A DNA stretch of 64,000 nucleotides. It comes from Myxococcales bacterium (lineage in GTDB: Bacteria; Myxococcota; Myxococcia; Myxococcales; UBA5297). The stretch lies in contig JBBIQS010000033.1 of assembly GCA_037442205.1 (NCBI GenBank), positions 1-64,000 on the forward strand, written 5' to 3'. Under the pieces are notes generated by a model. The model was not told where the DNA came from. It saw only the letters and a list, made by a program, of their open reading frames with translations, and did not search any database. The translations under genes were made by a program, and so were the position numbers. Positions 9,313 to 45,149 of the stretch are shown here, piece after piece. Within the stretch, counting starts at the first letter, position 1. The number at the start of each line of letters is the position of its first letter.

Positions 9313-9395
9313 GCTCTCTGCCGCGCCTCGTCGTTGCCCGCCTGCTCTGCTCGCCGCTAAGCTTGTCCACCTTTTCGAACCCAAGGGGTCTCGCG

Positions 9396-9947: not shown

Positions 9948-9959
9948 AGGAGACCGACC

Positions 9960-17452: not shown

Positions 17453-18429
17453 GGCGCGCCCCGCTTGGTCTCGGCCGCCAGCCCTTCCAGCAGGACGAGC
17501 AGGGCGCGCTGGAGCGCCGCGCCGGTCAGCTCCGCCGCGTGCCAGGCCTTCGCCGCGGCCAGCCGAGCCAGCAGCTCGCCGACCAGCCGCGCTCGCGCGT
17601 TGCTGGGCTTGCGAGCGTCGGCGAGGGTCGCCAGCAGCGCCTCGAGCTCGCGGTCGGCCTGCACGATGACGGAGAGCGGCGCTGGCGCCTTCTCGCGCGC
17701 CAGCTGTTGCTCGCTGGCCTCCCACAGCTCGCTCTTCAGCGACGCGAGCTGCGCCTGGAGCAGCGCCTCATAGGAAGGATCGGGCGCTCCCTGCGAGAGC
17801 TGGTCGCCGGCGCGGCCGAGGGCGAAGGCGAGGGCGGTCCACAGCGGTCGCGCGCCCAGGCCGCTGGCGGCGATGCTCGCCAGGTCCGACGCCGCCCAGA
17901 GCGCCAGTCCCTTGAATCCTCCCCGGTCGCGGTCGATGGCTGTCGCCGCCAGGCAGAAATCGGCGAAGCCGATCGCCGAGCGGCAGGCGCCGCAGACGCT
18001 CTCGAGGAGGGCGACCTCCTCCGGTCCGGCGGGAAGCTTGCCGAGCCATTCGCGGGCGAAGGTGCGGGCGATGAGCGCCTCCCGGCGCAGCCGAGCCAGC
18101 GATTCCTCGTCTTCGACGAGACGGGGCGCCAGCGTGCCGATGCGGGCCAGGCGCTCGCGCAGGTTGAAGAGCGCGCCGCAGCGGGCGAGCAGTCCCTGGG
18201 GCCCGAAGGCGCAGCCGAAATAGCTCGCCAACCGGTCGCGCTCGAAGATCAACGCCTGTGAGAGATCGCGCCGGGCGGCCAGGTCCGCCAGCCGCCGGCG
18301 GGCCGACTCGAACAGCCCGGGCCACTCCGCGCCAGCGCACGACAGGATCTGGGCGCTGGTGGCGCCGACCTGCTCTTGCAGCCGCTCATCGCTGTGGAAC
18401 TCGAGCATCGCATCTCCCAAAGCCCACAT
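17449..18429 (-). CDS. Hypothetical Ala/Leu-rich helical protein, first gene of the nfeD-flotillin operon
   Basis: Start at M53 of the ORF (MWALGDAMLEFHSDE) with GAGG 3 nt upstream; M60 is an alternative. Stop overlaps the NfeD start. The antisense frame is Arg-rich. Confidence 0.45.
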   Translation of the reverse strand: MWALGDAMLEFHSDERLQEQVGATSAQILSCAGAEWPGLFESARRRLADLAARRDLSQALIFERDRLASYFGCAFGPQGLLARCGALFNLRERLARIGTLAPRLVEDEESLARLRREALIARTFAREWLGKLPAGPEEVALLESVCGACRSAIGFADFCLAATAIDRDRGGFKGLALWAASDLASIAASGLGARPLWTALAFALGRAGDQLSQGAPDPSYEALLQAQLASLKSELWEASEQQLAREKAPAPLSVIVQADRELEALLATLADARKPSNARARLVGELLARLAAAKAWHAAELTGAALQRALLVLLEGLAAETKRGAP

Positions 18430-18703
18430 CCTCGGGGCTTCGGCATTTGCTGCGCTGGCAAGCAATCGGCATGCCCAGGGGCAACTGGGCGATTTTCCTT
18501 CGGATCGAGGCGGCGGGTGGCGCCAGGCGCCTGCGAACCTGGCGAGCCGCGCCTGCGAGGAGCGACAGGCTATCCCAAGGTCCAACGAGCTACAACGCGG
18601 GCTGGTTCGCTCGGAAGACGAGAAATCGACGCGCTCGCCGGCGGGTAGGCGATCGGCCGGGCGGTGCTACGCTGCGCTTCGCAGGAGCCTCGAAGGAGGA
18701 GCA

Positions 18704-19525
18704 ATGGGGTTCGGATCGATCCGGAGCGGCCGGGCCAGCCCCGTGAGCCTGCGGCAGAACTTCCGCAACTGGCGGGCGCACTACCAGCGGGATCTGCGGG
18801 GTCGCTACTTCCTGCGCCTCCACATGAGCCTGCTGCTGGCGGGAATGACGGTGGTGGGAGTGACGGCCACCAAGTGGATGCTGTGGGCTGGGATCGGCTC
18901 GATGCCCGTCCGCCTGCCCTTGGCGGTCTTCGCCGCCTACCTGAGCTTCTATGGTTTCGTGGCGCTCTGGCTGCGGGTGGTGAGCGGCGACCGGAGGCTG
19001 GCGGCGGCGCCGGCGGCGCTGGCCGCCGCGGCGGCGATGCCACCTCCGCCGCCTCCAGCCCAGGGCGCGTTCCACGCGCACCACCTCGATGCCCTGCCCG
19101 ACCTCGTCGAGAGCACGATCGACGCCGCCACCGACGGCCCTTCGGCTTCGTCCTCGTCCAGCGGCGTCGGGGATGCGGTGGGGGCGGTGCTCGACGTGGG
19201 GAGCGACGACTTCGGATTCGTGCTGCTGCTGATCGCGGTGGCGCTCTTCGTGCTGTCGGGGATCGGGGCCGCCGCTTACCTGATCGGCTACGCGCCCGAG
19301 ATTCTCGCCGAGATCGCCTTCAACGGCGCCTTCGCCGCGCTGATCGGCCGCACCGTCACCAGCCAGGACGGGATGGGCTGGGCCGGGGTGCTGGCGCGCA
19401 AGACCGCCATCCTCTTCGGGCTCATGGTCCTGACGAGCTGGGGTTTGGGCCTCGCTGCCCAGAAGTACTGCCCGACGGCGGTGACCGTGCAGGGCGCGCT
19501 GCACTGCGGAAGGAGCGCTCCGTAG
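18704..19525 (+). CDS. Polytopic membrane protein, hypothetical
   Basis: ATG at 18704 with AAGGAGGA RBS. Four or more hydrophobic helices (LLLAGMTVVGVTATKWMLWAGIG, FVLLLIAVALFVLSGIGAAAYLIG ...). PPPPPP linker. Confidence 0.5.
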   Translation: MGFGSIRSGRASPVSLRQNFRNWRAHYQRDLRGRYFLRLHMSLLLAGMTVVGVTATKWMLWAGIGSMPVRLPLAVFAAYLSFYGFVALWLRVVSGDRRLAAAPAALAAAAAMPPPPPPAQGAFHAHHLDALPDLVESTIDAATDGPSASSSSSGVGDAVGAVLDVGSDDFGFVLLLIAVALFVLSGIGAAAYLIGYAPEILAEIAFNGAFAALIGRTVTSQDGMGWAGVLARKTAILFGLMVLTSWGLGLAAQKYCPTAVTVQGALHCGRSAP

Positions 19526-21913: not shown

Positions 21914-24520
21914 ATGCAGCGATTCCTCCCATTCCTGGCGGCGGTGCTCGCACTCTCCTGGGGCCACGCCTGGGGAGCAGACTCGCTGACTGCGGCGGTC
22001 GCCACCGCTCCGGCGGAGAAGGCGACGGCCCCGGCGCAGGCGGACCCGGACGAGACAGCCAAGTCCGCGGAAACGCTGGGAAGTGCCTCTTCGGAAGCCT
22101 CCCCGGCCGAGAGCGGGCCCGGTCCCTCTGTCGCCGACCCGCCCACCGAAGGACGGGCCGAAGCGCCGATTTGCCAAGGGCCGGCTCCGGCCCCGGCGGC
22201 CGCCGCCCAACCCGCGGTGTCGTCGGCGCCCGCGTCCGCCGCGCTGGCGGTGTCTCCCGAGATCGCCCGCGGCGGCGAGGCCGCCTCCGCGAGCGAAACC
22301 TGGATCCGCTCTTCCTTCTTTCCCGCCGTCGACGCCCCGCCTCCGAGCGCGGCCAGCCCCGTGCTCACCGAGGCCGACCTCGCCTCCGCCCTTCGCGCCG
22401 AGCCGCTGGCCGGCGCCAGAAAACTCTTTGATTCCGGCCGCTTCGACGAGGTGATTGCGCAGCTCGGCGGCTCTTCGGCGCCCCAGGCGCGGTTCGTGCG
22501 GGCGATGGCGCTGCACCGCGCCGGCCGCGCCGCCGAGGCCGGGAAGGCCTTCGCCGAGGTGGCGCCGAGCTATCCGCCGCTGGCCGACCGCTGCCGGTTC
22601 CTGGCCGGGACCTCCTTCGAGGCCGCCGGGATGCCCGAGTCGGCTGCCAACGCCTACCGGCTCGTTTCCCCGACCGCGACCTCGTATCTGGAGTCGCAGC
22701 GCAGCCTCGCCCGGGTGCTGCAGCGAGTGGGCGATCTGCGCGGGGCGCTGGCGGTGTGGCGGCCGCTGTCGGAGCGCGTCACCCCGCCCTGGGGCCTGGA
22801 CGTCGCCGGCGAGGCGCTCTTCGAGATCGGCCAGCTGGAGGAGCTGCTCGGCCATCCCAAGGAGGCGGCGGCGGCCTTCCTGCGCGCCTGGGCCGAGCAC
22901 CCGGGGGCGCCGGGATCGGCGGCGGCGCTGTCTCGGGCCCGATCCCTGGGAGCCCAGCCGACCCTCGACCAGACCCTGTCGCGCGCCGAGAGGCTGCTCG
23001 ACCTCAACCAGAGCCGCTCCGCCGCCGAGATGGTGCGCTCGTTCGCCGAGGCCCCGCCGACTGCCGCCAGCGCCGAGCAGGTGTGCCTGGCCAAGTTCGT
23101 CCTGGGCAAGGCCTTCCGCAAGATGCGCCAGCACACCAAGGCGGTGGCGGTGCTAAAGACGGTCCTCTCGCAGTGCGAGCCGTCCGACACCTGGGCCCGG
23201 GCGGCCTTCGTCGCCGGAACCTCGGCCTCGTATCTCGATCCCGAGGAGTCGATCCGCGCCTACCTCGAGCTAGCGCAGCGGATGCCGGAGAGCCCGCTGG
23301 CCGACGACGCGCTCCTGGCTGCCGCCGAGCAGCTGCAGCGCAAGGGGCGGCTGGTGCAGGCCCGGATCGCCCTGCAGCGGCTGACCAAGCTCTACCCCGA
23401 CGGCGATCAGCGCTCCGAGGCGCTGTTCCGCCTGTTCTGGCTCGACCGCGCCGAGGGCCGGCTCCCCCAGGCGCTCTCGGCGCTGGAGCGGCTGGGCCAC
23501 TCGCTGTCGCCGATCGACGCCGACGCGCTGGAGCGCTCCCTCTACTGGCGAGGCCGGACGCTGCTCGACCTGCAGCGCGAGGCCGAGGCCCGGCGCGCCT
23601 TCGAGGCGCTGGCGATCGACCATCCGGCCAGCTACTACGCGCTGCTGGCCCGCTCGCGGCTGGCCGAGTTGGCTCCGCCGCAGGCCGCCGCCATCTCCGC
23701 CCGGCTGGCGACTCCGGCCTACGCCTCCCCCGAGCTCAAGCTCCCGCTGGCGCGGCTGGCGGCCGATCCCCGGCTGGCCTCGGCGATCGAGCTGTTGCGC
23801 CTGGGCTTTTCGGCCGAGGCCGCCGAGGAGCTGGCCGCCATCGACCGCGCCCCGCTGCGCGACAGCGCCGACTCGCTGCGGCTGATCGTGGCCCTGCTGG
23901 GGCGCACTGGCGACCAGCGGCTGGCCCACGCCGTGGCCCGCACCGAGCTGCGGCGCGACCTGGGGGCGGCCCCCAGCGCCGAGAACGCGCTGATGTGGCG
24001 GCTGGCCTATCCGCTGGCCTTCCGCGAGATCATCGAGCGCCACGCCAAGGACGCCGGGATCGACCCCGACCTGGTCCAGGCCCTGATCCGCGAGGAGAGC
24101 GCCCTCGACCCGCGGGTCCACTCCTGGGCCGGGGCGGTGGGGCTGTGCCAGCTGATGGTCCCCACTGCCCGCGAGCAGGCGGCCATGCTCAAGGCCGGCC
24201 GGGTCACCATCGATCGGCTCCACGAGCCGGACTTCAACGTGCGGCTGGGCACGCACTACCTGGCCCGCCTGGTGCGCCAGTTCAAGGGCAACGTCGCTCT
24301 CTCCCTGGCGGCCTACAACGCCGGCGGCGGAGCGGTCGGCAGCTGGATCAAGGCCCTGGACGGCCCGCGCGAGCTCGATGAATTCGTCGAGGACATCCCG
24401 GTGCTTGAGACGCGCAACTACGTCAAGCGTGTGCTCAAGTCGTACGCCGCCTACCAGCTGGTCTACGGGCGCGGCGGGCAGGAGCCTGGCATCGAGCGGC
24501 GGCTGGTGGCCACACGCTAG
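21914..24520 (+). CDS. Soluble lytic murein transglycosylase (TPR superhelix plus SLT catalytic domain)
   Basis: Signal peptide. About 600 aa of TPR-like repeats. C-terminal SLT motifs REESALDPRVHSWAGAVGLCQLMVPTA and AAYNAGGGAV. Confidence 0.8.
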   Translation: MQRFLPFLAAVLALSWGHAWGADSLTAAVATAPAEKATAPAQADPDETAKSAETLGSASSEASPAESGPGPSVADPPTEGRAEAPICQGPAPAPAAAAQPAVSSAPASAALAVSPEIARGGEAASASETWIRSSFFPAVDAPPPSAASPVLTEADLASALRAEPLAGARKLFDSGRFDEVIAQLGGSSAPQARFVRAMALHRAGRAAEAGKAFAEVAPSYPPLADRCRFLAGTSFEAAGMPESAANAYRLVSPTATSYLESQRSLARVLQRVGDLRGALAVWRPLSERVTPPWGLDVAGEALFEIGQLEELLGHPKEAAAAFLRAWAEHPGAPGSAAALSRARSLGAQPTLDQTLSRAERLLDLNQSRSAAEMVRSFAEAPPTAASAEQVCLAKFVLGKAFRKMRQHTKAVAVLKTVLSQCEPSDTWARAAFVAGTSASYLDPEESIRAYLELAQRMPESPLADDALLAAAEQLQRKGRLVQARIALQRLTKLYPDGDQRSEALFRLFWLDRAEGRLPQALSALERLGHSLSPIDADALERSLYWRGRTLLDLQREAEARRAFEALAIDHPASYYALLARSRLAELAPPQAAAISARLATPAYASPELKLPLARLAADPRLASAIELLRLGFSAEAAEELAAIDRAPLRDSADSLRLIVALLGRTGDQRLAHAVARTELRRDLGAAPSAENALMWRLAYPLAFREIIERHAKDAGIDPDLVQALIREESALDPRVHSWAGAVGLCQLMVPTAREQAAMLKAGRVTIDRLHEPDFNVRLGTHYLARLVRQFKGNVALSLAAYNAGGGAVGSWIKALDGPRELDEFVEDIPVLETRNYVKRVLKSYAAYQLVYGRGGQEPGIERRLVATR

Positions 24521-24881
24521 AAGCGCCCGGATCGACTGCGAAAAGCCGATCCAGCCTCGACCTTCTTGCTCGCCCGCTTGCCAGACTGCCGCCTTGGCGG
24601 GCGGGGGGAATCGTAGCTTTCGAGCCCGTGCTATAGTTCACACAAGGCGCCACCATGGAGGCTGAGACAGCCAGAGTGCGCGGGTTTGGAGCGCACGAGC
24701 CTATTGCGGCGAGCCGTCAGCGTTCGCCCAGGTCGCCGACTTCGGTGTGTCCCCCGAAGTCGTACGGTGCCGAGTCCACTGAGCGGTCGCCCGCCTCGAA
24801 GGCCGTCTGCCGAGGCGGGAGAGGGCCGCAGCGCCCGGAGCTGTGCGCAGCTCCCCGGGCCGCAGGACTGGGAAGGCCGCC

Positions 24882-25481
24882 ATGCTGAACAGCAACGTGT
24901 TGGTGCTCAACCGGCTCTATCAACCGATCCACATCACCAGCGTGCGCCGGGCCTTCGCGCTGCTCTACCAGGGCATGGCCCGGGCGATCGACGCCGAGTA
25001 CCGGCTGTTCGACTTCGAGAGCTGGGCCGAGCTGTCGGCCGAGCTGCACCGCGACTCGCTGGGGACGGTGGGCCGGCGGATCCGCATCCCGCGGGTGATC
25101 GTGCTCACCGCCTACGAGCACCTGCCCAAGGTGCGGGTGCGCTTCTCGCGCTTCAACATCTACGCCCGCGACGAGAACACCTGCCAGTACTGCTCCCGCA
25201 CCCTGCCGCGCAGCGAGCTCAACCTGGACCACGTGGTGCCGCGCTCGCGCGGGGGGACCACCACCTGGGAGAACGTGGTCTGCTCCTGCGTGCCCTGCAA
25301 CTTGAGGAAGGGCGGGCGCACGCCCCAGGAGGCGGGGATGAAGCTGATGAAGATGCCCACCCGCCCGCGCTGGACCCCGCTTCTCAGGGCCCCCCTGCGC
25401 AAGGCCACCTACCGCGAGTGGCTGCCGTTCTTGAGCCTGGCCGACGCCAGCTACTGGAACGTCGAGCTGCTCGACGACTGA
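24882..25481 (+). CDS. HNH endonuclease family protein
   Basis: CQYCSRTL...LNLDHVVPRSRGGTTTWENVVCSCVPCNLRKGG is the HNH motif with zinc-finger cysteines. Start at M14 of the ORF, with GGAAGG upstream. Confidence 0.75.
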   Translation: MLNSNVLVLNRLYQPIHITSVRRAFALLYQGMARAIDAEYRLFDFESWAELSAELHRDSLGTVGRRIRIPRVIVLTAYEHLPKVRVRFSRFNIYARDENTCQYCSRTLPRSELNLDHVVPRSRGGTTTWENVVCSCVPCNLRKGGRTPQEAGMKLMKMPTRPRWTPLLRAPLRKATYREWLPFLSLADASYWNVELLDD

Positions 25482-25487
25482 GGGCCG

Positions 25488-25796
25488 ATGCCCGAGCCGG
25501 CTCGACAGCGGCACTGCGAGCGCTGCGGCCGCGCCCTGGAAGACGGGGCGCTGCGCTACCGGGTGGAGATCCGCCTGACCGCCGACTTCGATGGCCTGCT
25601 CGGCACGCCCGGGGAAGGGGAAGGCAAGAGCCTGGAGGAGCAGCTGGCGGCCTGCGAGGGGATGTCCGAAGAGGAGCTGATGGCCGGGGTCCACCGGGCG
25701 CTGCTCTTTTTGGTCTGTCCGGCCTGCCGGAAGGCGATCGAGCGCGAGCCGCTTGGGGCGGGTTCCTTGAAGGGCGCGGGAGGGGTGGTACAGTAG
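25488..25796 (+). CDS. Small zinc-ribbon protein
   Basis: CERCGRAL ... CPACRK cysteine pairs. 102 aa. Starts 6 nt after the HNH stop. Confidence 0.5.
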   Translation: MPEPARQRHCERCGRALEDGALRYRVEIRLTADFDGLLGTPGEGEGKSLEEQLAACEGMSEEELMAGVHRALLFLVCPACRKAIEREPLGAGSLKGAGGVVQ

Positions 25797-25848
25797 CGGC
25801 CGCCCTGCCGCAGGATGCTCCGGCGATTGGGCCCGACGAGGAGCTTCG

Positions 25849-26871
25849 TTGACCGCTTCCCGCCCAGGTAACCTGCCCGCCCAAGGGCCGGTTGGCACTC
25901 ACGCTTCCGGCTCCAGCGCCGCGGCCACGGCCGAGCGCAAGAGGCCTGCCCCCAGGGGCAAGCCCCGCGCCTGGCGGATCCTGGCCGTCGGGGGCGGCAA
26001 GGGCGGCATCGGCAAGAGCATGGTCTCCGGCAACCTGGGGATCGAGCTCGCCCGCCGCGGCAACCGGGTGGTGCTGATCGACGCCGACCTCGGCGGGGCC
26101 AACCTCCACACCTGCCTCGGGGTGCCCGCCCCCAAAGTGACCCTGACCGACTTCCTGACCCACAAGGTGGCCCGGGTCGAGGACGTCATCGTCCCCACCG
26201 GGATCGAGAACCTGGGGCTGGTGAGCGGGGCCTTCGATGCCCTGGACGTCGCCAATCCCAAGTACGCGCAGAAGCTAAAGCTTTTGCGCAACTTCCAGAC
26301 CCTGGACGTCGACTACGCCATCCTCGATCTGGGGGCCGGCTCCAGCTACAACGTCCTCGACTTCTTCCTGATCGCCGACCACGGGATCCTGGTGCTGGTG
26401 CCCGAGCCCACCTCGATCGAGAACGGCTACCGGTTCATCAAGGCGGCCTTCTTCCGGCGGATGGCGAGCGTGCAGGCGGCCTACGGCATCGAGGCGCTGG
26501 TCCAGGACGCGATGAGCCGGCGGCAGGAGAACGGGATCAAGACCCCGTACGACGTGATCGTCGCGGTGAAGAAGCGCGACGAGCAGGCCGGGGCGAGCCT
26601 CGAGCGGGAGATGCGGCGCTTCCGCCCTCGGCTGGTGGTGAACCAGACGCGCTCGCCGGCCGACAAGCTGGTGGGCGAGGCGGTGGTCGGCGCCTGGCGC
26701 AAATACTTCGGCCTGGAGATGGATTATCTGGGCGCCATCGGCTACGACGACGAGGTGTGGAAGGCGGTGCGCAAGCGCCGGCCGATCGTCCTCGAGCAGC
26801 CGGAGGCGCCGTCGGCGCGGGCGATCGCCGCCATCGCCGATCACATCGCGCGCCTGGATAGGGAGCCGTGA
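25849..26871 (+). CDS. ParA/MinD-family P-loop ATPase with an N-terminal low-complexity extension
   Basis: Deviant Walker A GGGKGGIGKS, IDADLGGANL, LDLGAGSS; overall MinD/FlhG-like (COG0455-type) architecture. Confidence 0.8.
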   Translation: MTASRPGNLPAQGPVGTHASGSSAAATAERKRPAPRGKPRAWRILAVGGGKGGIGKSMVSGNLGIELARRGNRVVLIDADLGGANLHTCLGVPAPKVTLTDFLTHKVARVEDVIVPTGIENLGLVSGAFDALDVANPKYAQKLKLLRNFQTLDVDYAILDLGAGSSYNVLDFFLIADHGILVLVPEPTSIENGYRFIKAAFFRRMASVQAAYGIEALVQDAMSRRQENGIKTPYDVIVAVKKRDEQAGASLEREMRRFRPRLVVNQTRSPADKLVGEAVVGAWRKYFGLEMDYLGAIGYDDEVWKAVRKRRPIVLEQPEAPSARAIAAIADHIARLDREP

Positions 26872-26917
26872 GGGAGCGCGCCGCCGGCGGAGGCTGGCCG
26901 GGCGCGGCCGAGAGACC

Positions 26918-28471
26918 ATGAAGCCGTTGAGCGAGCAGAACTACTACGAGCTGCTCGAGGTGGCCCCCGACGCCACCCCGCAGGCGATCGAGAACGCCTT
27001 CGAGCGCGCCATGGCCTTCTACGGCCCCGGCTCGCTGGCCACCTACTCGCTGGCCGATCCCGCCGACGCCGCCAAGCTGGTGTCGCTGCTGGAAGAAGCC
27101 TACCTGACCCTCTCCGACCCCGACCTGCGCCTGCAGTATGACGAGGACCTGCGCGCCCAGGCGGCGGCCTCGCCCCAGGCCCCAGCGTCGGCCCCGGCTC
27201 CGCTTCCGCCCCCGTCGACCGTGCTGCTCGCCCCGCCGGCGGTTCCCGCCAGCCGGCTGCCGGCCAATGCCCAGCTGGCGATGGGCCCGATCCTCGAAGC
27301 TGCACACCGCTATCCCTGGCCGGGCAGCCGCCCGGAGGACGAGGGCGCCGCGCCCGCTCCTGCCAGCGCTCCGCAAGCTTCGCCTGAGCCGGCGCCGCTC
27401 GCCGCAGCAGCGGTGATTGCTGCGGCTCCGGCCAAACCCGCGGTCGAGGAGCCAGTGCCGTCCGCGGTTTCTGCTGCGGCGGCGCCGGCCACAGCGGCGC
27501 CGTCGCGGCTCGAGTCGCCGGTTCCGGGCTGGGTCTCCGCTCCCGGGCCTCAGGCGCGGTCTGCCGCGGCGGAGGCTGTCCGCGAACCGGCTGCCGCTTC
27601 CCCGGCCTCGCCTGGTGCCGAAGCAGCTCCGCCCGCCCCGATTCCGAGCGTCCCCGAGCCGGCGCGTTCCCAGGCTGTGGCCGACAGCGCCCCGACGTCG
27701 CCCGCCGCTGAGCCGGCGGCGGCCTCGAACCAGGCGACTCCCGAATCGGCGCCGGTGCCTGAAGCTCCGGTCGCCCGCGCCCCGGCGTCGGATGCTCCCG
27801 TCGAAGCCGCCCCAGCGCCGCGCTCCGAGGCCCCGGTCGCCAGCGCCCAGCCGGCCGAGACGGTCGCCGCGGCGCCGGCCGCCCCTGAAATCGCCGCCCC
27901 GGCCAAGGATGCTCCGCCCAGCGCTCCAGCTGCCGATCCGGCCGCGGCCGAAGCCCCGGCTCCGAGTGCCGGAGCGGTCCGCGGGCCTGCCCAGCCGCCC
28001 GCCAGCGCTGCGCCCTCCGCCGAGCCCGTCCTGGCAGCCGCCGGCGCCGAGCTCGCCCGCCGGCCCGCGGCCGCAGCCGCCAGGGCAGGGGACAAACCCA
28101 AGCTCGAGAGCACCCCGGCCGAGGTCCGCCCGGCCGAGCCGCGCAACGACAGCCGGCCGCCCCCTCCCACGCCCATCGGCCGGCAGGGATCCAAGAACTT
28201 CGAGATCCCTCCCAGCGCCCCCTTCAACGGCGAGCTGCTGCGCCGCATCCGCGAGTCGCGCAACATCTCGCTGCGCGAGCTCTCCGACCGCACCAAGATC
28301 GCCTGCAGCCACCTGGAGAACATCGAGGCCGACCACTACAAGGCCCTGCCGGCGTCGGTCTACCTGCGCGGCTTCCTGATGCTCATCGCCCGCGAGCTCA
28401 AGCTCGACCCGCTCAAGGTCAGCAAGAGCTTCCTGGAGCTGGCTGCCGGCGCCAAGTCGGCCAAGCCCTAG
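26918..28471 (+). CDS. J-domain protein with about 350 aa of Ala/Pro-rich disordered region and a C-terminal RodZ-type HTH
   Basis: N-terminal YYELLEV..AIENAFERAMAFY is J-domain-like. C-terminal LLRRIRESRNISLRELSDRTKIACSHLENIEADHYKALPASVYLRGFLMLIARELKLDP resembles the RodZ/XRE HTH. No TM segment. Confidence 0.65.
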   Translation: MKPLSEQNYYELLEVAPDATPQAIENAFERAMAFYGPGSLATYSLADPADAAKLVSLLEEAYLTLSDPDLRLQYDEDLRAQAAASPQAPASAPAPLPPPSTVLLAPPAVPASRLPANAQLAMGPILEAAHRYPWPGSRPEDEGAAPAPASAPQASPEPAPLAAAAVIAAAPAKPAVEEPVPSAVSAAAAPATAAPSRLESPVPGWVSAPGPQARSAAAEAVREPAAASPASPGAEAAPPAPIPSVPEPARSQAVADSAPTSPAAEPAAASNQATPESAPVPEAPVARAPASDAPVEAAPAPRSEAPVASAQPAETVAAAPAAPEIAAPAKDAPPSAPAADPAAAEAPAPSAGAVRGPAQPPASAAPSAEPVLAAAGAELARRPAAAAARAGDKPKLESTPAEVRPAEPRNDSRPPPPTPIGRQGSKNFEIPPSAPFNGELLRRIRESRNISLRELSDRTKIACSHLENIEADHYKALPASVYLRGFLMLIARELKLDPLKVSKSFLELAAGAKSAKP

Positions 28472-28527
28472 CAATCTCAGGCGATTAGGCGAGGGTTCGC
28501 CCCCTCGAAAGGCGAGAAGCCGATTAA

Positions 28528-28556
28528 TTGACAGGCCCCGGGCACGCCCATAGCAT
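28528..28556 (+). promoter_or_regulatory. Candidate sigma70-type promoter (TTGACA-N17-TAGCAT) for the small gene at 28604
   Basis: Perfect -35 hexamer, 17-nt spacer and a TAgcAT -10. GGAG lies 13 nt before the ATG. Confidence 0.35.
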
Positions 28557-28603
28557 CGGACCGGCTCGAGCGCTTTCGTTCGAGGCGCGCGGAGTGGCGA
28601 AGA

Positions 28604-28867
28604 ATGACCGACGAGGAGAAGGCCAAGGCGATTCGGCTGGCGCGTGCCATCGCGTCCGACATCTCCCTCTACAACGAGGCGAAGATCGTCCAGGGCATCG
28701 AGCGCGACAACCTCTTCGAGGTCCTCAGGGACGAGATCGAGGAGGGGCGCGAGCTCTACCGCAGCCGGGTCAGCGCCGAGATCTTCGGCAGCACCAACTT
28801 CTTCGACCGCGCCCTGGTCGACGTGGTCATCGCGCGCAAGGGCCACATCAAGTCCAAGATCTGGTAG
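28604..28867 (+). CDS. Small conserved hypothetical protein (87 aa)
   Basis: Balanced, coding-like composition (MTDEEKAKAIRLARAIASDISLYNEAKIVQGIERDNLFEV...). Stop lies 3 nt before the rluD-like gene start. Confidence 0.5.
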   Translation: MTDEEKAKAIRLARAIASDISLYNEAKIVQGIERDNLFEVLRDEIEEGRELYRSRVSAEIFGSTNFFDRALVDVVIARKGHIKSKIW

Positions 28868-28870
28868 CGC

Positions 28871-29821
28871 TTGCCCGCCCGCCAGCACACGGTTCCCCTC
28901 GAGGCGCGCGGTCGGCGCCTCGACGCATTTCTGGTCTCGGTCGAGCCAGAGCTGTCCCGCTCCCGGATCCAGGCGCTGATCGAGTCCGGGGAGATCCTCG
29001 TCGAGGGGCAGCCGGCCAAGCCTTCCCGCCTGCTCAAGGGCGGCGAACAGCTCACCGTCTCGGTCGAGCCTCCCCGGCCGGCGATCCCACAGCCGGAGCA
29101 GATTCCCCTCAAGGTCCTGTTCGAGGACGCCCACCTGATCGTCGTCGACAAGCCGGCCGGGCTGGTGGTCCACCCGGGCGCCGGCAATCTCTCCGGCACC
29201 CTGGTCAACGCCCTGCTGGCCCACGTCCAGGATCTGGCGGGCATCGGCGGCGAGCTGCGGCCGGGCATCGTCCACCGCCTCGACAAAGACACCAGTGGCT
29301 GCCTGGTCGCCGCCAAGACGGAGCTGGCGCTGGCCCGGCTGCAGCGCGAGTTCAAGGCCCACGCGGTCAAGAAGGTCTACCTGGCCCTGGTCCACGGCGC
29401 GACGCCGCCCTCCGGCCGCTTCGACACCCTCCACGGCCGCCACCCGACCGACCGGATGCGGTTCAGCGGCAAGGTGCAGGCCGGCCGCCGCGCCATCACC
29501 GAGTTCAGGACCGCCGAGTCCTTCCCGGGCGCCTCCCTGGTCGAGGTCTCGCTGCTCACCGGGCGCACCCACCAGATCCGCATGCACTTCGCCGAGGCCG
29601 GCCATCCGCTCCTCGGCGATCGGCTCTACGGCGGCGCCAAGCGGGAACAGCGGCTGCCCAGGGACTCCGCGGTCCGCCGCGCGGCAGACGCGCTGGGGCG
29701 GCAGGCGCTCCACGCCTGGAAGCTCTCCTTCGCTCATCCGGTCAGCGGGCAGCTCCTTAGCCTGGAGGCTCCGCTCACGCCTGATTTCTCTGCGGCTTTG
29801 GAGATTCTGCGGGCAGGGTAG
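28871..29821 (+). CDS. rluD: RluA-family 23S rRNA pseudouridine synthase (RluD-like), with an N-terminal S4 domain
   Basis: VVDKPAGLVVHPG, HRLDKDTSGCLVAAKT (catalytic Asp motif), and an S4-like N-terminus (RLDAFLV). TTG start as placed by the ORF track. Confidence 0.8.
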   Translation: MPARQHTVPLEARGRRLDAFLVSVEPELSRSRIQALIESGEILVEGQPAKPSRLLKGGEQLTVSVEPPRPAIPQPEQIPLKVLFEDAHLIVVDKPAGLVVHPGAGNLSGTLVNALLAHVQDLAGIGGELRPGIVHRLDKDTSGCLVAAKTELALARLQREFKAHAVKKVYLALVHGATPPSGRFDTLHGRHPTDRMRFSGKVQAGRRAITEFRTAESFPGASLVEVSLLTGRTHQIRMHFAEAGHPLLGDRLYGGAKREQRLPRDSAVRRAADALGRQALHAWKLSFAHPVSGQLLSLEAPLTPDFSAALEILRAG

Positions 29822-29932
29822 CTGGGCCGGCGACCGCTGGCGCCGCTCGGCGCCTTACCGCATCCGCGGCGACCGGCCCGTAGATCGCGCCGGCCGCTCG
29901 CTATCGGTCACGGTTCATTCCGTCCCACGCCG

Positions 29933-31246
29933 CTACCCGATCGACACCGACTGCTTGTTCTTCCCCAGCACGCGGATCGGCTGGATGGCCATCACCTTCA
30001 TGAACACCTTGAGCAGCTCCGGATCGAACTTGTGCCGCATCTCGGTCCACATCAGCGTCAGGGCGATCTCCGGTCCATAGGCGTCGCGGAACGGCCGCTT
30101 GCTGGTCAGCGCGTCGTAGACGCAGCAGATGGCGACCATCTTGGCGTAAACGCTCAGCTGGCCTTTGGGGATGATCATCGAGATGTTCCCACGGCCGTCC
30201 TTCACCGCGGTGCCGAACTCCTGCTTGTGCTCGGCGGTGGCCACCAGCCGCATCAGGTTGCTGCGGTTGAAGTTCTTCTCCGCCAGGATCTGCTTGAGCG
30301 TCTCGTGGTAGGCGCCCTGCAGCTTGTTCTTCTCATCCTGGGAGAGCGCTCCGGCCTTCTTCAGCAGCTTGTCGTCGACCGAGCTCATCCCGGTCTCGTG
30401 GAACAGGGCGATCAGCCCCACCTCGCGCATCTGCGCCTTGCTGAGCTGCAGCTCGTTGGCGAAGACGATGGCCATCAGCGCCGCGTTCACCTGGTGGAAG
30501 ACGTGGTACTCCGCCTCCTCGCGCATCGAGGTCATGCCCAGGAAGTGGCTGCGCTGCTCGTAGCTGACGTCCACCAGATCCTGGACCACCCGGCCGGCCT
30601 TGGCCGCCGGGATCGGCTTGCCGCCCTTGATCCCCTCGATGTACTGCCGCAGGAAGTAGACCGCCCGGGCGTAGCAGGTGAGCGCGTACTTCTTGCGGTC
30701 CACCTTCTGCTCGTCGGGGTTGGCCAGGTCGTCCTTGTCCAGCTTCTCCTTGAGCCGGCTGTACTTGGTCAGCTTCATCTGGACCAGCTTCTTGCCCGCC
30801 AGCCCGTCCTCCTCCGCCGCCTTGGACTGGTCCTTGGCGAAGATGGAGAGGAAGTTCTTCAGCTCCTGCGGGTTGACCGGCCGCACCAGTGAGAAGCCGC
30901 CCACGTCCTTGGAGCGCATCTCCTCCTCGAGCTGGCGCACGTTGTCCAGGGAGTTGGCGTCCACCTTGACCAGCATTCCGTTGAGGTAGAAGGCGCCCTT
31001 GACCGCCTGCAGCTCGAGCTTTCCGTCGACGGCGATGATCTGGTTGATGTTGTCCTGCAGCTGGGTCAGCGGCTTGGCGAAGATGGCGTTGTCCGGGTCG
31101 TAGAGCCGGACCGAGCGCACCAGCATGTACAGCGAGCTGACCATCTGCCGGGCCATGGTCTGCAGCTTCTCGGAGTAGTCGCGGCCGGTCTCGGAGAGGT
31201 TCTCGGCGCGCTCGCCCTCGTTGCGGGTGATCTTGATGTCGGCCAT
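29933..31246 (-). CDS. HD-GYP-like domain protein with degenerate catalytic motifs
   Basis: Sequence-level similarity to HD-GYP. LFHETGM sits where HD would be (HE instead of HD), YHE where HHE would be, and CVYDALTSKRPFRDAYG where GYP would be (RPF instead). Start at M8 (MADIKIT). Confidence 0.6.
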   Translation of the reverse strand: MADIKITRNEGERAENLSETGRDYSEKLQTMARQMVSSLYMLVRSVRLYDPDNAIFAKPLTQLQDNINQIIAVDGKLELQAVKGAFYLNGMLVKVDANSLDNVRQLEEEMRSKDVGGFSLVRPVNPQELKNFLSIFAKDQSKAAEEDGLAGKKLVQMKLTKYSRLKEKLDKDDLANPDEQKVDRKKYALTCYARAVYFLRQYIEGIKGGKPIPAAKAGRVVQDLVDVSYEQRSHFLGMTSMREEAEYHVFHQVNAALMAIVFANELQLSKAQMREVGLIALFHETGMSSVDDKLLKKAGALSQDEKNKLQGAYHETLKQILAEKNFNRSNLMRLVATAEHKQEFGTAVKDGRGNISMIIPKGQLSVYAKMVAICCVYDALTSKRPFRDAYGPEIALTLMWTEMRHKFDPELLKVFMKVMAIQPIRVLGKNKQSVSIG

Positions 31247-31295
31247 CGACCTTGACCTCGTCGGCACAGGCGCCGAAAGGGCGCCGCAGCGCCGG

Positions 31296-33050
31296 TTACG
31301 CCATCTCCAGGGCCTTCTTGACGTTGAACAGCGCGCGGCGGGCGGCGGAGACCACCTCGGACTCGTTGCCCTTGTCGTCGATCACCGCCTGCAGCGCCTT
31401 GTAGGAGGGGATGGAGGGCATCGCCGACAGGCCGGCGACGGCCAGCAGCTTGTCCTCCTTGATCTTGCCCCGGCGCAGCAGGCTCTTCTGAATCAGCAGC
31501 TGCCCGAAGTAGGCCAGCGCCGCCGGCTGCTCGGTGGAGCCCAGCGCCACGAAGATGGCCTCCTTCTCCGGCATCTCGCGCTTGTCGAACTCCTCCGACT
31601 TGACGACGCCGATCAGGTCGGCGGCCGCCTTGTCGGCAGCCGAGTTGCGCAAGACCTTGGCCGCCTGGATCCGCATCTGCGGGTTGCTGTCGCTGAGCGC
31701 CGAGACGATGAACCGGCGGCACTGCTCGGACTTGGAGCGCGAGAGGATGGCCAGCACCTCCAGGCGCACCGCCAGGTTGGGGTTCTTCAAGGTCTCCCCG
31801 AAGTACTTCATCTTGTCGGGGAAGTCGCACTTGTCGATGATGTAGATCATGTCGCGGACCATCTGCGACTTCTCGCTCTGCAGCCGGCGCAGGAACGGGT
31901 CGGCGTCGTTCTTGCCCAGCGCCGCCAGCGCGTCGCAGATCAGCGGCCGGTTCTCCTGGACCTCGATCGTCTCCAGGATCTCCAGCAGCGGCGGGATGGC
32001 CTCGCGTTCGAGCACGCCCAGGTAGCTTCTGACCTCGGCCGGGTTGCGGGCCTTGCCGGTGTTGAGGATCTCGCCCACTCGCCGCAGGCGCTGCTCCTCG
32101 CCCATCTTGGTCTGCAGGAACTTGCGCAGCCGGGCTCCCTGGGCCGCCAGGTTGGCGTTGCGCTCCAGGCTGCGCAGCTTGACCACCAGGGCGTTGATGG
32201 TGGCGAAGTCCTCCTGCATCAGCATCGAGTCCACCAGCTGCAGCAGCACCTCCTCGAAGGCCGCCTCGTTCTCGAAGCCGGCCTCCTCCAGCACCTGGAA
32301 GATGGCGGCGGAGAGCTTGGGGAACAGCCGGACCTCCTCGTCCTCCTTGAGGTCCTGCTGCAGCTTCTTGACCAGCTTGTCGTCGGCGGTCACTCCGGAG
32401 ACCACCGCTCCGCGCACCTGATCCACGCCCTCCAGCTTCATCTCCAGGTCTTCCGAGGAGACGCGGGCGAAGCGCAGGTAGTCGTCGCTGGTGGAGCGCA
32501 GCCGGCTGTAGAGGTAGCCGACGATCTTGTCGACCTCGACCGCCACCTCCTCCTCGTCCTTCTCGCCGACAGAGAAGCCTTCCACCACGATGTACTCGAT
32601 GTTCTCGAAGCCGGCCTTCCACAGCTGAGCCAGGATGTCCTCGGTGCGGGTCGGGTCGCTGAGGGCGATGAGCACGAACTTGAGGAACTCGTCGGCGGTC
32701 AGTGTGGGCCGGAAGATCAGGTGGCGGATGCCGTCGCGGAAGAACTTGTAGGGGAGGTTGTCGTTGTCGCTGGCCTCGAGGAGCGTCTGCTTGAACATCG
32801 AGAAGCACTGGGCTTCGACCTTGAGCGACAGAGCGCCGTGCTTCTCGCCGTACTTCTGCACCGCCTCGAAGGCCTTCTGCAGGAACTCGGGGTAGCGGCT
32901 GGTGTTGTGGCGGTAGATGCCGATGTTCTTGATGCCCTTGGCCAGGTGGAAGGCGAACTCCTTGGCCAGCTCCAGCTTCTCCTTGTTCTCGGGCAGCGAG
33001 AGCGGATCGATCTCGGCGTTCTCGGCAGGCTTGGCGGCAGCTTTTGCCAT
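31296..33050 (-). CDS. HEAT/ARM-repeat protein with an unassigned N-terminal domain
   Basis: Start at M74 of the ORF (MAKAAAKPAEN) with GAGGA RBS. C-terminal half shows HEAT-like repeats (NPNLAVRLEVLAILSRS, DSNPQMRIQAAKVLRN). Lies 49 nt upstream of the HD-GYP-like gene on the same strand. Confidence 0.55.
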   Translation of the reverse strand: MAKAAAKPAENAEIDPLSLPENKEKLELAKEFAFHLAKGIKNIGIYRHNTSRYPEFLQKAFEAVQKYGEKHGALSLKVEAQCFSMFKQTLLEASDNDNLPYKFFRDGIRHLIFRPTLTADEFLKFVLIALSDPTRTEDILAQLWKAGFENIEYIVVEGFSVGEKDEEEVAVEVDKIVGYLYSRLRSTSDDYLRFARVSSEDLEMKLEGVDQVRGAVVSGVTADDKLVKKLQQDLKEDEEVRLFPKLSAAIFQVLEEAGFENEAAFEEVLLQLVDSMLMQEDFATINALVVKLRSLERNANLAAQGARLRKFLQTKMGEEQRLRRVGEILNTGKARNPAEVRSYLGVLEREAIPPLLEILETIEVQENRPLICDALAALGKNDADPFLRRLQSEKSQMVRDMIYIIDKCDFPDKMKYFGETLKNPNLAVRLEVLAILSRSKSEQCRRFIVSALSDSNPQMRIQAAKVLRNSAADKAAADLIGVVKSEEFDKREMPEKEAIFVALGSTEQPAALAYFGQLLIQKSLLRRGKIKEDKLLAVAGLSAMPSIPSYKALQAVIDDKGNESEVVSAARRALFNVKKALEMA

Positions 33051-33366
33051 GGGAGGATCCTCGGCGACGGCAGTGGCGAAAATGCTACCACGCTCTCCGA
33101 GCGAGGGTCGGAGCGCCCGCCCTTTCCGCCTCAATCCCGGGTGGTACACTCGCCCCCGGCGTGCCCAATTCGCCGCAGCGGCGGTGGATTTCGCGCTGCC
33201 GCCGCTCCGGGGAGCGCCGCAAGCCGGCGATATTGCTGGCCTCTGCCGCCGGGCGTGGGGATTGCACAACCGCCGCCGACGGCGGGTGAAAGAACCTGCG
33301 GGGTACTTCGTACGTTCACAGGGGCGCCAAGCTCTTCAGTTGTGGCCTTGGACTCGGGAGGTCGTC

Positions 33367-35537: not shown

Positions 35538-38500
35538 ATGAATCGCCGTCTCCTCCTGGTCGCCGGGTTGATCCTGGCTGGCGCCGGATGCACCAGCGAC
35601 GTTCCGCACTCCAACCCGTACGATCCCCAGTCGCCGACCACGGCCCAGGCCAAGTCGCGGCTGGTGGGACGGGTTTCGTTGGAGGGCAAGGGCGACGCCG
35701 ACGATCGCTCGGGGGTGCGGGTGGCGCTGACGGCGTTGGGCCTGGAGTCCTCCACCGTCGCCGACGGGAGCTGGACGCTGGATCAGGTCCCGCCCGGAAC
35801 CTGGTCGCTGGAGGTGTCGAAGGAGGGCTACCGGACCGGCACCATCTACCCGGTGGTGGTGACTCTCGACCAGGGCGGCGCCGAGGTTCAGGTGCCGGCC
35901 ATCGGGTTGCAGCGGTCGCGCGGGTCGGTGCGCGGCAAGGCGCTGCTCGAGGGCGAGGACGTCAGCGCCGGCATCTCGGTGTCGCTCTCCAACGGCGCTG
36001 GCTCCGGCCAGACCGACGCCACGGGCGAGTTCGTGCTCTCGGGGATCGCCAGCGGCACCTACGAGGTCAGCTACTCCAAGGTGGCCTTCCGCGACGTCCG
36101 GGTCGGAAACGTAGTGGTGGCGCCCGACGGGACCACCGTGCTGGCCCCGGTGACCCTCTCCTCGAACCCGGGATCGCTCAGCGGCCGGGTAATCGTGCGC
36201 GGCGCGGCCAACAGCGACGGCGTGCTGGTGACCGCCGACGGCATGACCTTGGGCGGCCACCACAACGTGGTGCAGGTGACCACCGCCGCCGATCCCAGCG
36301 GTCAGAAGCCGGACGGGTCGTTCACGCTGTCCAACGTGGCGGCCGGCCTCTACAACGTCATCTTCACCAAGGACAACTACATCACCGAGCAGGTCTCGGT
36401 GGCGGTCACGCCGGAGAAGGAGAGCGTGCTGGCCCCGGTGACCATGACCGGCGCCGTGGGGGCGCTGACCGGAACGGCCACCCTGGCCGGAGCCCTCGAC
36501 CACTCGGGGATCGAGGTGTCGCTGACCCCGCAGCCGACCACGGCCAACCCCAACCCCTCGGTGGCGGCGGCGGCCATCACCGACAGCGCGGGCACCTGGC
36601 GGCTGGAGGGGCTGCCGGTGGGCAACTACGACCTCCTCTACAAGAAGCGGCCCGGCTACCAGGACAAGACTGGCACGGCCACGGTGGTGCGCGATGCGGT
36701 GGTGTCCGCCGGCGCCGTGGTGCTCGCCGAAATCCCCGGTGAGATCAGAGGCCGGGTGCTGCTGGAGGGCTTCGCCGCCGGGGCCGATCTCTCGGGCACC
36801 TCGGTGCGCCTCGACGGCCATCCGGCGGTGACCACCGACGCCCAGGGCAACTACTCGGTCACCGGCAGCGGCGGCGCCCACCTGCTGCACGTCACGCGCA
36901 CCGGCTACACCGAGGCCAAGGTCCAGGTGGCCATCGCCGCCGGCGACATCCTGACCCTCGACGACGTGACCCTGGCCAAGGCCCGCGGCAGCGTCTTCGG
37001 GATCCTGGCGGTCGAGGAGCGCTCCGACGCCTCGGGAGTGCTGGTGACGCTCTCCAGCGCCACCGAGCCCTCGTTCACCGCGCTCACCGACTCGCGCGGG
37101 GCCTTCCGCTTCTCCGGCGTGCCGGTGGGCACCTGGCAGCTCGACGCCAGCCTGCCCAATTACCTGGGCATCCCCACCGCCACCGCCACCGTGGCCGCCA
37201 ACCTCGACACCGAGGCCCCCTCGGCCACCGCCCCCGCGGCCAGCAGGACCCTGTCGCTGCGCCGCGACGCCGCCATCCTGGGAACGGTCCACTACAGCGC
37301 CGGCAGCGATCAGTCGGGCGTGAACGCCGACCTCTCTGGCGCCGACGTCAACGGGGTGGTGGTCCACCTCACCGCCCGCAGCGATGTTTCCGGGGCCTTC
37401 TCCTTCACCGGGTTGCCGCCGGGCGGCTATCGGCTCTCCCTCGCGCTGCAGGACTACGAGGCCGCCGACCTGGGCTCGGTGGCGCTGGCCGCCGGGCAGA
37501 CGGTGACCCTGGGGGCGGCGAGCCTTTCCCGCTCCCGCGGCGACGCCGCCGGCCAGTTCCTGCTTACCGGCGCCTCCAGCCACGACAACATCAAGGTCAC
37601 CCTCTCCGGAACCGGGGCCATCGCCGGCACGACGGTCAGCGTCCTGACCGATCCTCTCGGCAACTTCTCCGCCGCCGGCCTGCCGGTGGGCACCTACAGC
37701 GTCGCCGCCACCAAGGCCCCGGACTGGGCCTCGCAGACCGGCTCGCTCACCGTCACCCGCAACGCGGTCGGCCAGCTGGTCGGCTCGCCGCTGTCGCTGA
37801 CCGTGATCTCCACCGCCAGCGTCGCCGGCAAGGTGACGGTCGAGAAGGGCGCCACCGCCGGAACCTCGGTGCGACTGCAGGGCAAGGACCTGCGCGGAGT
37901 GGCGGTCGATCTCACGGCCCAGTCGGACGCCACCGGCGCCTTCCTCTTCTCCAACCTGGTGGGCGGCGACTACCAGCTCGGCTATTCGCGCACCGGCTTC
38001 GAGGCCACCTCCTCCACCGCCTTCCGGGTGGCCAGCGCCGCGGCGGTGACCGCCCCCGACGTCGTGCTGCGGGTGCTGCGCGGGACGGTCAGCGGAACAG
38101 TGAAGCTCGACCCGGGCACGGTGGTGGGCTTCGCCGTCGGCACCGATTTCTCGGGAGCGCGGGTGGCGCTGCTCGATGAGACCGGGGCCGAGGTGGATCG
38201 CACCGTCACCGACGCCAGCGGCGCCTTCCAGTTCCGGGCCGTTGCCGTCAGCCTGGTCACCGGCCTGAGCCACACCGTCAATGCCTCGCTCGACCACTTC
38301 AAGACCGCCAGCGCCCAGGTGCAGGTGGCCGCCAATGGAAACACTCCGGTCGGCCCGCTGACCCTGCTGCTACAGCCCGGCTCGATGACCGGCTTTGCCT
38401 ACCTCAACGACAACGTCGGCAACTCCGGGCGCAACGCCGACAGCACCGGGATCGCGGTCTCGGTCTCCGGCGTGGCCTACAACGGAGTGACCTACAGCAA

Positions 38501-43113: not shown

Positions 43114-45126
<2,013 letters not shown>

Positions 45127-45149
45127 ATTCAAGCCGAGGGCGCGACGAA

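Follow-up and report, generated by a model that had tools for sequence, protein, structure and literature searches.

Bacterial cells owe their spatial organisation chiefly to ATPases of the ParA/MinD kind, and every further type of adaptor described for them has exposed a new cargo. In MinD with MinE/MinC, ParA with ParB, PomZ with PomXY, McdA with McdB and ParC with ParP, a dimerising ATPase is found next to a dedicated adaptor; these adaptors carry a charged N-terminal region, and PomX/PomY and McdB also have long disordered segments. Here we describe a gene pair of the same layout in a stretch of 64,000 nucleotides (nt) from a Myxococcales bacterium (assembly GCA_037442205.1, contig JBBIQS010000033.1, positions 1 to 64,000 of the forward strand; the whole stretch is called the window below). 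The gene of an ATPase of the MinD/FlhG clade is followed there by the gene of a partner protein, which resembles the known adaptors in its charged N-terminal end and its long disordered segment. None of the ParA/MinD systems described is listed with an adaptor that joins a J fold to a RodZ-type helix-turn-helix (HTH), as this partner does, and the present ATPase has no membrane-targeting sequence. The terms DnaJ, J-domain, RodZ, SMC and helix-turn-helix are all missing from a 2024 review of the ParA/MinD family. The pair is a widespread ATPase subfamily with a new adaptor architecture.

The G+C content of the window is about 71% and is flat across the locus in a composition scan. At this composition the raw lists of open reading frames (ORFs) are noisy, and the coding frames were picked by third-position GC, which is 0.85-0.98 in the true frames. 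The first-pass annotation, made from the sequence alone, had described four same-strand genes with gaps of 6, 52 and 46 nt, coding for an HNH endonuclease, a zinc-ribbon protein, a ParA/MinD-like ATPase and a J-domain protein with a RodZ-type HTH, and had taken them together as a possible positioning or DNA-associated system. The coordinates and gaps are exactly as it gave them, the boundaries of the first three genes were reproduced by an independent gene call on a public contig, and the domain labels of the HNH protein, the ATPase and the partner are backed by Pfam and NCBIfam. The four genes as one unit are largely refuted by gene order, as is set out further below.

Relatives were sampled by scanning one genome per species, which gave 80 loci encoding a relative of the ATPase, and the proteins of the window were mapped onto these. 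The gene of the J/HTH partner stands directly after the ATPase gene in all 79 loci with sufficient downstream DNA, with a spacing that runs in the fetched loci from a 1-nt overlap up to about 200 nt. This adjacency is found in Myxococcaceae, Anaeromyxobacteraceae, Vulgatibacter, one metagenome-assembled genome (MAG) labelled Bdellovibrionales and 16 Nitrospirota loci, so that the pair is present in at least two phyla, and the proposed dedicated pairing of the ATPase with the disordered J/HTH protein is borne out from Myxococcota to Nitrospirota. The real unit is thus two genes, the ATPase and its partner, and this two-gene core is strongly supported. The orthologues of the pair in Myxococcus xanthus are MXAN_3348 (the ATPase, by position) and MXAN_3349, at another locus than PomZ (MXAN_0635), the ATPase that is encoded alongside the coiled-coil protein PomX and the HEAT-containing PomY.

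The ATPase (25849-26871, plus strand; 340 amino acids, aa) matches the Pfam families ParA, CbiA and AAA_31. The deviant Walker A sequence GGGKGGIGKS named by the first-pass annotation lies at residues 48-57 (25990-26019, plus strand), with the signature lysine at K51 and the P-loop lysine at K56, and together with DADLGGANLH and LDLGAG, which hold the switch I and switch II aspartates, it places the protein in the deviant-Walker-A superfamily. Walker A in the form GGGKGGIGK[ST] and switch I in the form D.DLGGANLH are kept in 81 of 82 orthologues, and the superfamily motifs are invariant in alignment A3. The ATPase of the window is about 55-63% identical to those of Anaeromyxobacter and Myxococcus and 52-53% identical to those of Nitrospirota, and the core has a mean net charge of +3. 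Residues 1-39 form a disordered tail which is basic in the myxobacteria (+7 in the window).

Within the superfamily, the earlier suggestion of a system not matching the Par, Min or Pom modules is supported for Par and Min by curated scores, motifs and neighbours together, and the pair does not fit FlhG either. All curated NCBIfam models score below their cutoffs: 77.1 bits against a cutoff of 212.9 for bacterial MinD and 96.2 against 201.75 for archaeal MinD (the models TIGR01968/TIGR01969), and 28 against 180 for partition ParA (NF041546); the partner moreover has no ParB domain, and by these measures the ATPase is not a partition ParA. The closest solved proteins by sequence are FleN, FlhG and archaeal MinD, in alignments limited to residues 40-199 of the ATPase. 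When the AlphaFold2 (AF2) model of the ATPase, with a mean predicted local distance difference test (pLDDT) of 82, was compared with known structures, identity was 27% to FleN, 24% to FlhG, 22-25% to MinD and 21% to Soj, and the FleN structures, including FleN-FleQ complexes, gave template-modelling (TM) scores up to 0.83. With FleN and FlhG (5j1j, 4rz2, 8p53) the ATPase shares the fold, the deviant Walker A with its signature lysine, a DxDLGxANL switch I and a PEPT-type motif. It differs from them in the low identity (about 24-27%), in an alignment confined to the N-terminal half, and in an inserted helical segment, about 40 aa long, which the model helices and the end of the alignment would place at about residues 205-256.

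Other defining elements of FlhG and MinD are also missing from this ATPase. The N-terminal DQAxxLR motif of FlhG, which activates FlhF, occurs in none of the 82 ATPase sequences. The final helix of the protein, at residues 321-338, is packed against the core with high pLDDT, and it is followed by 2 residues in the window and by a variable 2-9 in the orthologues, so that there is no conserved C-terminal extension to serve as an amphipathic membrane-targeting helix; this structural argument was used in place of a crude hydrophobic-moment calculation, in which a real MinD targeting sequence scores no higher. No flhF, fli, fleQ, minC or minE is found among the annotated neighbours of the pair, and the partner here is a J-like/HTH protein in place of the FlhF/FleQ of FleN and FlhG. 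Many orthologues carry the automatic JGI name FlhG, even in organisms without flagella, and others are named simply P-loop NTPase. Myxococcus is non-flagellated, and for myxobacteria without flagella the name FlhG cannot fit. The ParA1 and ParA2 proteins of Bdellovibrio were considered as possible orthologues and set aside: the published description calls them Soj-like, gives no function for their neighbours and mentions no J or HTH domain (PMC7186360), and no link was made. The idea that the ATPase is a ParA-like product of the gliding gene agmE found no backing in the literature and was set aside as well.

The partner (26918-28471, plus strand; 517 aa) matches Pfam DnaJ and HTH_25 and consists of two folded ends and a tether. 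In the AF2 model, the J fold at residues 1-84 is confident (pLDDT >90), residues from about 89 to 425 are disordered (mostly <50) and the HTH is again confident at residues 430-515. In the DNA these parts correspond to 26918-27169 (plus strand) for the J-like domain, 27170-28207 (plus strand) for the linker of about residues 85-430, and 28208-28471 (plus strand) for the HTH_25 domain of residues 431-517. The architecture is the same in Myxococcota, in Nitrospirota and in the MAG labelled Bdellovibrionales, and further contigs agree with it. This is a large family of 1373 clusters at 50% identity (E<=1e-30), and its members bear in databases only the generic names "helix-turn-helix" or "DnaJ domain" protein. 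A search profile built from the full-length partner (A1) was swamped by the low complexity of the linker and returned 56 matches, and the alignment of short-linker members (A2) worked.

The J-domain label given from the sequence proved right for the fold and doubtful for the function that it implies. The domain scores 32.7 bits against a cutoff of 27.8 for Pfam DnaJ, and Foldseek superposes its four helices on J domains with a root-mean-square deviation (rmsd) of about 2 Å and TM scores up to 0.86. The histidine of the His-Pro-Asp (HPD) tripeptide is essential for the stimulation of Hsp70 ATPase activity, as in DnaJ H33Q. The tripeptide is found in none of the 73 complete orthologues and in none of 138 further cluster representatives, all of which lack this histidine. 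Its proline is kept in the equivalent loop, which reads FYGPGS (G-P-G) in the window, S/A-P-D in Myxococcus and E-P-N in Nitrospirota, and the pattern Y-x-P-x-S-[LIV]-A-x-Y-x-L of this loop forms a short additional helix. The domain is acidic, with a mean net charge of -6 (-10 in the window), where canonical J domains have a basic helix II. From J-domain proteins of the DnaJ/CbpA/DjlA class the partner differs in these respects, and it also lacks their G/F region, zinc finger and client-binding domain. Because the domain is HPD-less and acidic, a canonical co-chaperone role of the partner is unlikely. A lysine at position 2 is conserved, and 67 of 73 orthologues have a lysine or arginine somewhere in residues 2-5.

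The linker is made up of 32% alanine and 23% proline, and the claim of about 350 aa of Ala/Pro-rich disorder agrees with the roughly 340 disordered residues of the model. In Nitrospirota it has about 60 aa and in Myxococcus as many as about 500, and the whole partner measures between 209 and 661 aa. No coiled coil is predicted in the AF2 model of the partner, and there is no transmembrane segment, the hydrophobic maxima being Ala/Val stretches interrupted by proline. A recurring aromatic patch of the form F/Y-S/T-[FY]-[AV] was seen in the linkers of Myxococcaceae (L035 at about residues 185-200, L071 at about 118-128, L072 at about 108-118), and it might be a short linear motif.

The C-terminal domain is of the RodZ type, as had been recognised, and scores 65.7 bits against a cutoff of 24.6 for HTH_25. 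The best PDB matches by sequence are Chlamydia CT009, a RodZ homologue, and Thermotoga maritima RodZ in its MreB co-crystal (2wus), and the best by structure are Staphylococcus aureus YmfM (3fym, rmsd 1.7 Å) and 2wus (rmsd 1.9 Å); SinR-DNA and ClgR structures are also among the Foldseek matches. Identity to the RodZ structures (2wus, 3fym, 4gqm) is 30-33%, and 32-33% to that of T. maritima. The signature LP..[YF]..G[FM]..R.YA..LGLD is common to the partner and canonical RodZ (LP..Y.RGF...A..LGLD in the comparison with the RodZ structures). In an HMMER alignment, K36, Y53 and Y57 of T. maritima RodZ, which reportedly contact MreB (work of van den Ent from 2010), are matched by H465, Y482 and F486 of the partner; Y482 is invariant, and F486 is replaced by I or L in some orthologues. 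In RodZ the HTH is N-terminal and is followed by a transmembrane helix and a periplasmic DUF4115 domain; in the partner it is C-terminal, neither of these is present (no match to DUF4115/RodZ_C, PF13464, was found), and it is fused through the long linker to a J-like domain and always paired with the ATPase. A J fold minus its Hsp70-activating motif, joined to an HTH of the MreB-binding type known from RodZ, is unprecedented as an adaptor, and with >1,300 clusters at 50% identity in Myxococcota and Nitrospirota it is widespread.

A gene that the first-pass annotation had not noticed lies 132 nt after the partner gene. It is an ORF of 87 aa (28604-28867, plus strand) without a Pfam or NCBIfam match, which aligns over residues 1-87 with RomX of PDB 8zna (E 1e-38) and is 74% identical to the RomX of the M. 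xanthus locus (L035), where RomX is MXAN_3350 (bioRxiv 10.1101/2024.02.20.581209). The romX gene directly follows the pair in all 56 non-Nitrospirota loci with the necessary flank, with a median gap of 73 nt and usually 3-120 nt. In the MglA polarity module of M. xanthus, RomX is described as partnering RomR; RomR-RomX is debated to be a guanine nucleotide exchange factor or an effector of MglA-GTP (PMC9481161 vs PMC13408092), and a connection to MreB of MglA, to which RomX binds, is reported in PMC4508894. The pair is joined to this module by synteny. The pair thereby lies directly upstream of a core polarity gene in the genetically tractable M. xanthus.

Taken together, the two genes probably encode an ATPase and its dedicated adaptor, as in other ParA/MinD pairs: the ATPase has all the catalytic and dimerisation motifs without a surface-binding element of its own and the partner offers two folded ends on a flexible tether. 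On this understanding the ATPase would dimerise as an ATP sandwich by means of its signature lysine and cycle between states, and the acidic, HPD-less J fold, with Lys2, would dock on the mildly basic ATPase. The J-like domain would then probably trigger ATP hydrolysis, as the N-terminal regions of ParB, MinE, PomX and McdB do. Identity between the phyla is 44-47% for the J-like domain against 37-39% for the HTH, and the higher conservation of the J-like end would fit its contact with a highly conserved, net-basic ATPase core. The Ala/Pro linker would serve as a flexible spacer of lineage-specific length, and the C-terminal HTH_25 would grip a polymeric scaffold.

As that scaffold we tentatively suggest MreB filaments on the cytoplasmic side of the membrane, so that the pair would be a two-protein ParA/MinD-type module with the partner as a soluble, RodZ-like MreB adaptor. 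To our knowledge, no activity other than the binding of MreB has been demonstrated for domains of this type. MreB and DNA as scaffolds are nearly tied, and MreB is slightly favoured because the domain type binds MreB, the signature residues are kept, and the neighbours in myxobacteria, with a lytic transglycosylase upstream and RomX-MglA downstream, fit an envelope and polarity theme to which an MreB anchor could tie the module.

Several points weigh against MreB. HTH_25 shares its fold with XRE and lambda repressor, a fold whose usual ligand is DNA, and in the partner the domain is mildly basic (+3.5). The second MreB-contact position is Ile/Leu and not aromatic in many myxobacteria. A neighbourhood conserved within one phylum is weak functional evidence, and in this case it includes rluD, which is almost certainly unrelated. 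The co-immunoprecipitation of MXAN_3349 with both DnaK paralogues, given in the interactome data of PMC11019930, would also allow the J-like domain to engage Hsp70 and not the ATPase. Finally, the pair in Nitrospirota is translationally coupled to scpB in an scpA-HEAT-scpB operon, which points to the chromosome and not to MreB.

The alternative to which this last point leads is that the same module works on the nucleoid, where HTH_25 would bind DNA non-specifically or at defined sites and the ATPase would cycle near the chromosome and organise or position it or SMC-ScpAB; we hold this to be only slightly less likely than the MreB anchor. The order scpA-HEAT-scpB-ATPase-partner is found in 13 of 13 Nitrospirota loci with upstream flank and likewise in L085, with the stop of scpB overlapping the start of the ATPase gene by 4 nt. 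The XRE fold of the domain with its Foldseek matches to SinR-DNA and ClgR, its net positive charge and the basic N-tail of the myxobacterial ATPases would agree with work on DNA, and the HNH gene found upstream in 53 of 58 non-Nitrospirota loci fits a DNA theme. Against these stands that the Nitrospirota loci form one fairly close clade, with ScpA proteins 64-94% identical among them, so that the whole scp context amounts to one synteny observation. Neither scpA nor scpB is present in the 64-kb window or in the myxobacterial flanks, the HTH is most closely related to MreB-binding RodZ proteins and not to known DNA binders, and the ATPase belongs to the MinD/FlhG clade and not to the DNA-binding ParA clade. 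In Nitrospirota, romX is not adjacent to the pair. The context decides for neither scaffold, since each of its signals comes from a single clade, and in the myxobacterial synteny rluD is dragged along as well.

The protein between scpA, which encodes the kleisin, and scpB in these loci has about 290 aa and gives weak Pfam matches to Cnd1, PDS5 and Adaptin_N, which may be generic to HEAT repeats; the arrangement is seen at L058:4443-6929 and in the same region of L060, L062, L063, L073-L076, L079, L080 and L085. A HEAT protein in a kleisin operon is reminiscent of the eukaryotic HAWK subunits. The arrangement suggests a second, chromosome-related entry point to the pair.

A wider proposal joins the two contexts. 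In it, the pair would be a phylum-spanning positioning system in which a soluble RodZ-like adaptor, with its J fold repurposed as an activator of the ATPase, links a MinD-like ATPase to MreB or the nucleoid, setting or reading a cue of RomR-RomX/MglA in myxobacteria and acting with SMC-ScpAB in Nitrospirota. As a whole this is rather unlikely. The pair could help to show how cells coordinate MreB and the chromosome with the polarity module, and, if the proposal were true, it would be a missing link between the organisation of cytoskeleton and chromosome and cell polarity.

It is unlikely that the partner is instead an atypical Hsp70 co-factor, whose J-like domain would recruit DnaK to the target of the HTH, with the ATPase as a client, a regulator or an unrelated protein. 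The observations that speak for it come from the DnaK interactome paper PMC11019930, which was the only description of either gene of the pair found in the literature. MXAN_3349 is identified as the orthologue of the partner by its position and by the J-domain sequence in Data Set S4 of that paper, where it is listed among 15 predicted J-domain proteins. The interactome data report its co-immunoprecipitation with MxDnaK1 and MxDnaK2 and a confirmation by split-NanoLuc, and its expression is said there to drop on heat shock; the DnaJ score above the gathering cutoff and the kept proline of the HPD motif agree with such a role. The uniform loss of the HPD histidine and the acidic charge speak against it, and a disordered Ala/Pro region of 340-500 aa could make the partner a mere client of DnaK. 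MXAN_3348 does not appear in the DnaK interactome tables of PMC11019930, and the strict pairing with the ATPase would be left unexplained. Researchers working on romX may have examined the neighbouring genes without publishing on them.

We regard as quite unlikely a regulation of the FleN/FleQ kind, in which the ATPase would be an ATP-dependent anti-activator of a DNA-binding HTH partner. The closest solved structures are indeed those of FleN, including FleN-FleQ, and the partner does have an HTH; a histidine kinase gene is also encoded divergently upstream of the cluster in the window, with a sigma-54 activator (response regulator) beside it in Anaeromyxobacter. That regulator, however, is not kept next to the kinase gene of the window. 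In the FleN-FleQ case, an enhancer-binding protein of the AAA+ class (FleQ) is bound through its AAA+ domain, and the partner has no such domain. We know of no HTH_25 domain that serves as a transcription-factor domain, and a linker of such length and disorder would be unusual in a repressor or activator. At the position equivalent to the regulator, the window has two overlapping opposite-strand ORFs (17449-18585, minus strand, and 18359-19525, plus strand) with high third-position GC and no Pfam match.

Very unlikely is the view from which the analysis of this locus started, that all four genes form one system, for example a nuclease-containing module associated with DNA or with defence. The tight same-strand spacing in the window and the HNH gene as the usual upstream neighbour in myxobacteria are in its favour. 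The HNH gene (24882-25481, plus strand) encodes a stand-alone protein of 199 aa when counted from ATG, and an upstream GTG at 24843 is also open. The protein scores 57.9 bits with Pfam HNH_5 and 49.8 bits with HNH, and has a CxxC...CxxC zinc site, a D-H...N...N catalytic core and an N-terminal domain of about 95 aa without assigned function; its similarity to IscB/Cas9d and to PDB 4h9d is restricted to the HNH core. Among the 53 non-Nitrospirota loci with an upstream HNH gene (58 have room for it), 47 have it within 600 nt and 6 have it displaced by 1.9-4.1 kb; the gene is missing in 5 loci and present in none of the 16 Nitrospirota loci. The HNH is accordingly a myxobacterial neighbour of the pair outside its conserved core, and the claim that it is part of the system is not supported.

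The zinc-ribbon gene fares worse in the comparison. It lies at 25488-25796 (plus strand; third-position GC 0.87) and encodes 102 aa with CxxC pairs at Cys10/13 and Cys77/80, so that the four-cysteine pattern noted for it stands; no match above threshold was found in Pfam, NCBIfam, PADLOC or PDB. A homologue occurs in only 1 of the 80 loci (L004, 59% identity), and the gene, placed after that of the HNH protein and before that of the ATPase, is a lineage-specific insertion. When the proteins of the four genes and one further protein, five in all, were run through PADLOC, the HNH gave generic matches only (PtuB, REase, Cas9 HNH) and the other four nothing significant, and the locus lies in a chromosomal region of stable synteny and flat G+C, not in an island. 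The four-gene or defence-island view was rejected on conservation and on this PADLOC result.

Some further arrangements were seen around the HNH gene. In at least two of the loci with a displaced HNH, both from Myxococcaceae, an extra gene of 580-620 aa separates the HNH gene from the ATPase gene (L005:5112-6851 and L039:4990-6864), and its product in L005 has an N-terminal hydrophobic segment which may be a signal peptide. The Archangium-type loci L040, L041, L053, L056, L057, L065, L069, L071, L072, L077 and L081 carry a second, divergent HNH paralogue, 36-38% identical to the HNH of the window and about 2 kb upstream of the HNH gene, which, wherever the fetched flank reaches as far as slt, stands between that gene and the orthologous HNH. 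In a more distant myxobacterium-like contig (L084:4886-6220) a gene of SelA, the selenocysteine synthase, lies between slt and HNH and overlaps the start of the latter by 4 nt.

That the ATPase is simply FlhG or MinD, as JGI names and the best PDB matches to FleN, FlhG and MinD would have it, is almost certainly wrong and was ruled out by the curated cutoffs, the missing motifs and helix and the absence of flagellar and Min genes among the annotated neighbours of the pair, Myxococcus being moreover non-flagellated.

The remaining genes of the myxobacterial neighbourhood complete the picture of the locus. Upstream of the HNH gene, 21914-24520 (plus strand) encodes a Slt70-like soluble lytic transglycosylase with TPR/superhelical repeats (Pfam SLT 86 bits, with TPR families), and slt is found upstream of the pair in most myxobacterial loci. 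In the 132-nt gap before romX, a sigma-70-like promoter match, TTGACA-17-TAGCAT, lies at 28528-28556 (plus strand); it is a match to the consensus and the sole one in 24400-30000, where shuffled sequence gives a mean of 0.1, and it may be an internal promoter. Three nucleotides after romX begins the gene of an RluD-type 23S rRNA pseudouridine synthase (28871-29821, plus strand), which scores 287.5 bits against a cutoff of 192.7 for the RluA subfamily of NCBIfam and 244.6 bits, under the cutoff of 351, for the RluD equivalog. The gene is kept downstream of romX in myxobacterial loci and is probably unrelated in function to the pair.

Convergent to these and downstream of rluD, the window has an HD_5 (HD-GYP-like) gene at 29933-31267 (minus strand) and the gene of a HEAT-repeat protein of 657 aa at 31296-33269 (minus strand), the latter with a weak match to the stromalin SCD domain; both genes are kept in many Myxococcaceae loci. 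In two Nitrospirota loci (L085:9171-10802, a response regulator, and L075:~9100-10800) an HD_5 gene directly follows the pair, and its presence beside the pair in both phyla could be a coincidence or a second shared neighbour. Farther downstream, 42790-46252 (plus strand) encodes FtsH, a protein of 122 aa with a marginal match to sigma-70 region 1.1, and GrpE, which at 17 kb from the J-like gene is too distant to argue for a link. Between these groups, 35538-42323 (plus strand) encodes a protein of 2261 aa with many CarboxypepD_reg/prealbumin-like repeats, which is probably a very large surface or secreted protein.

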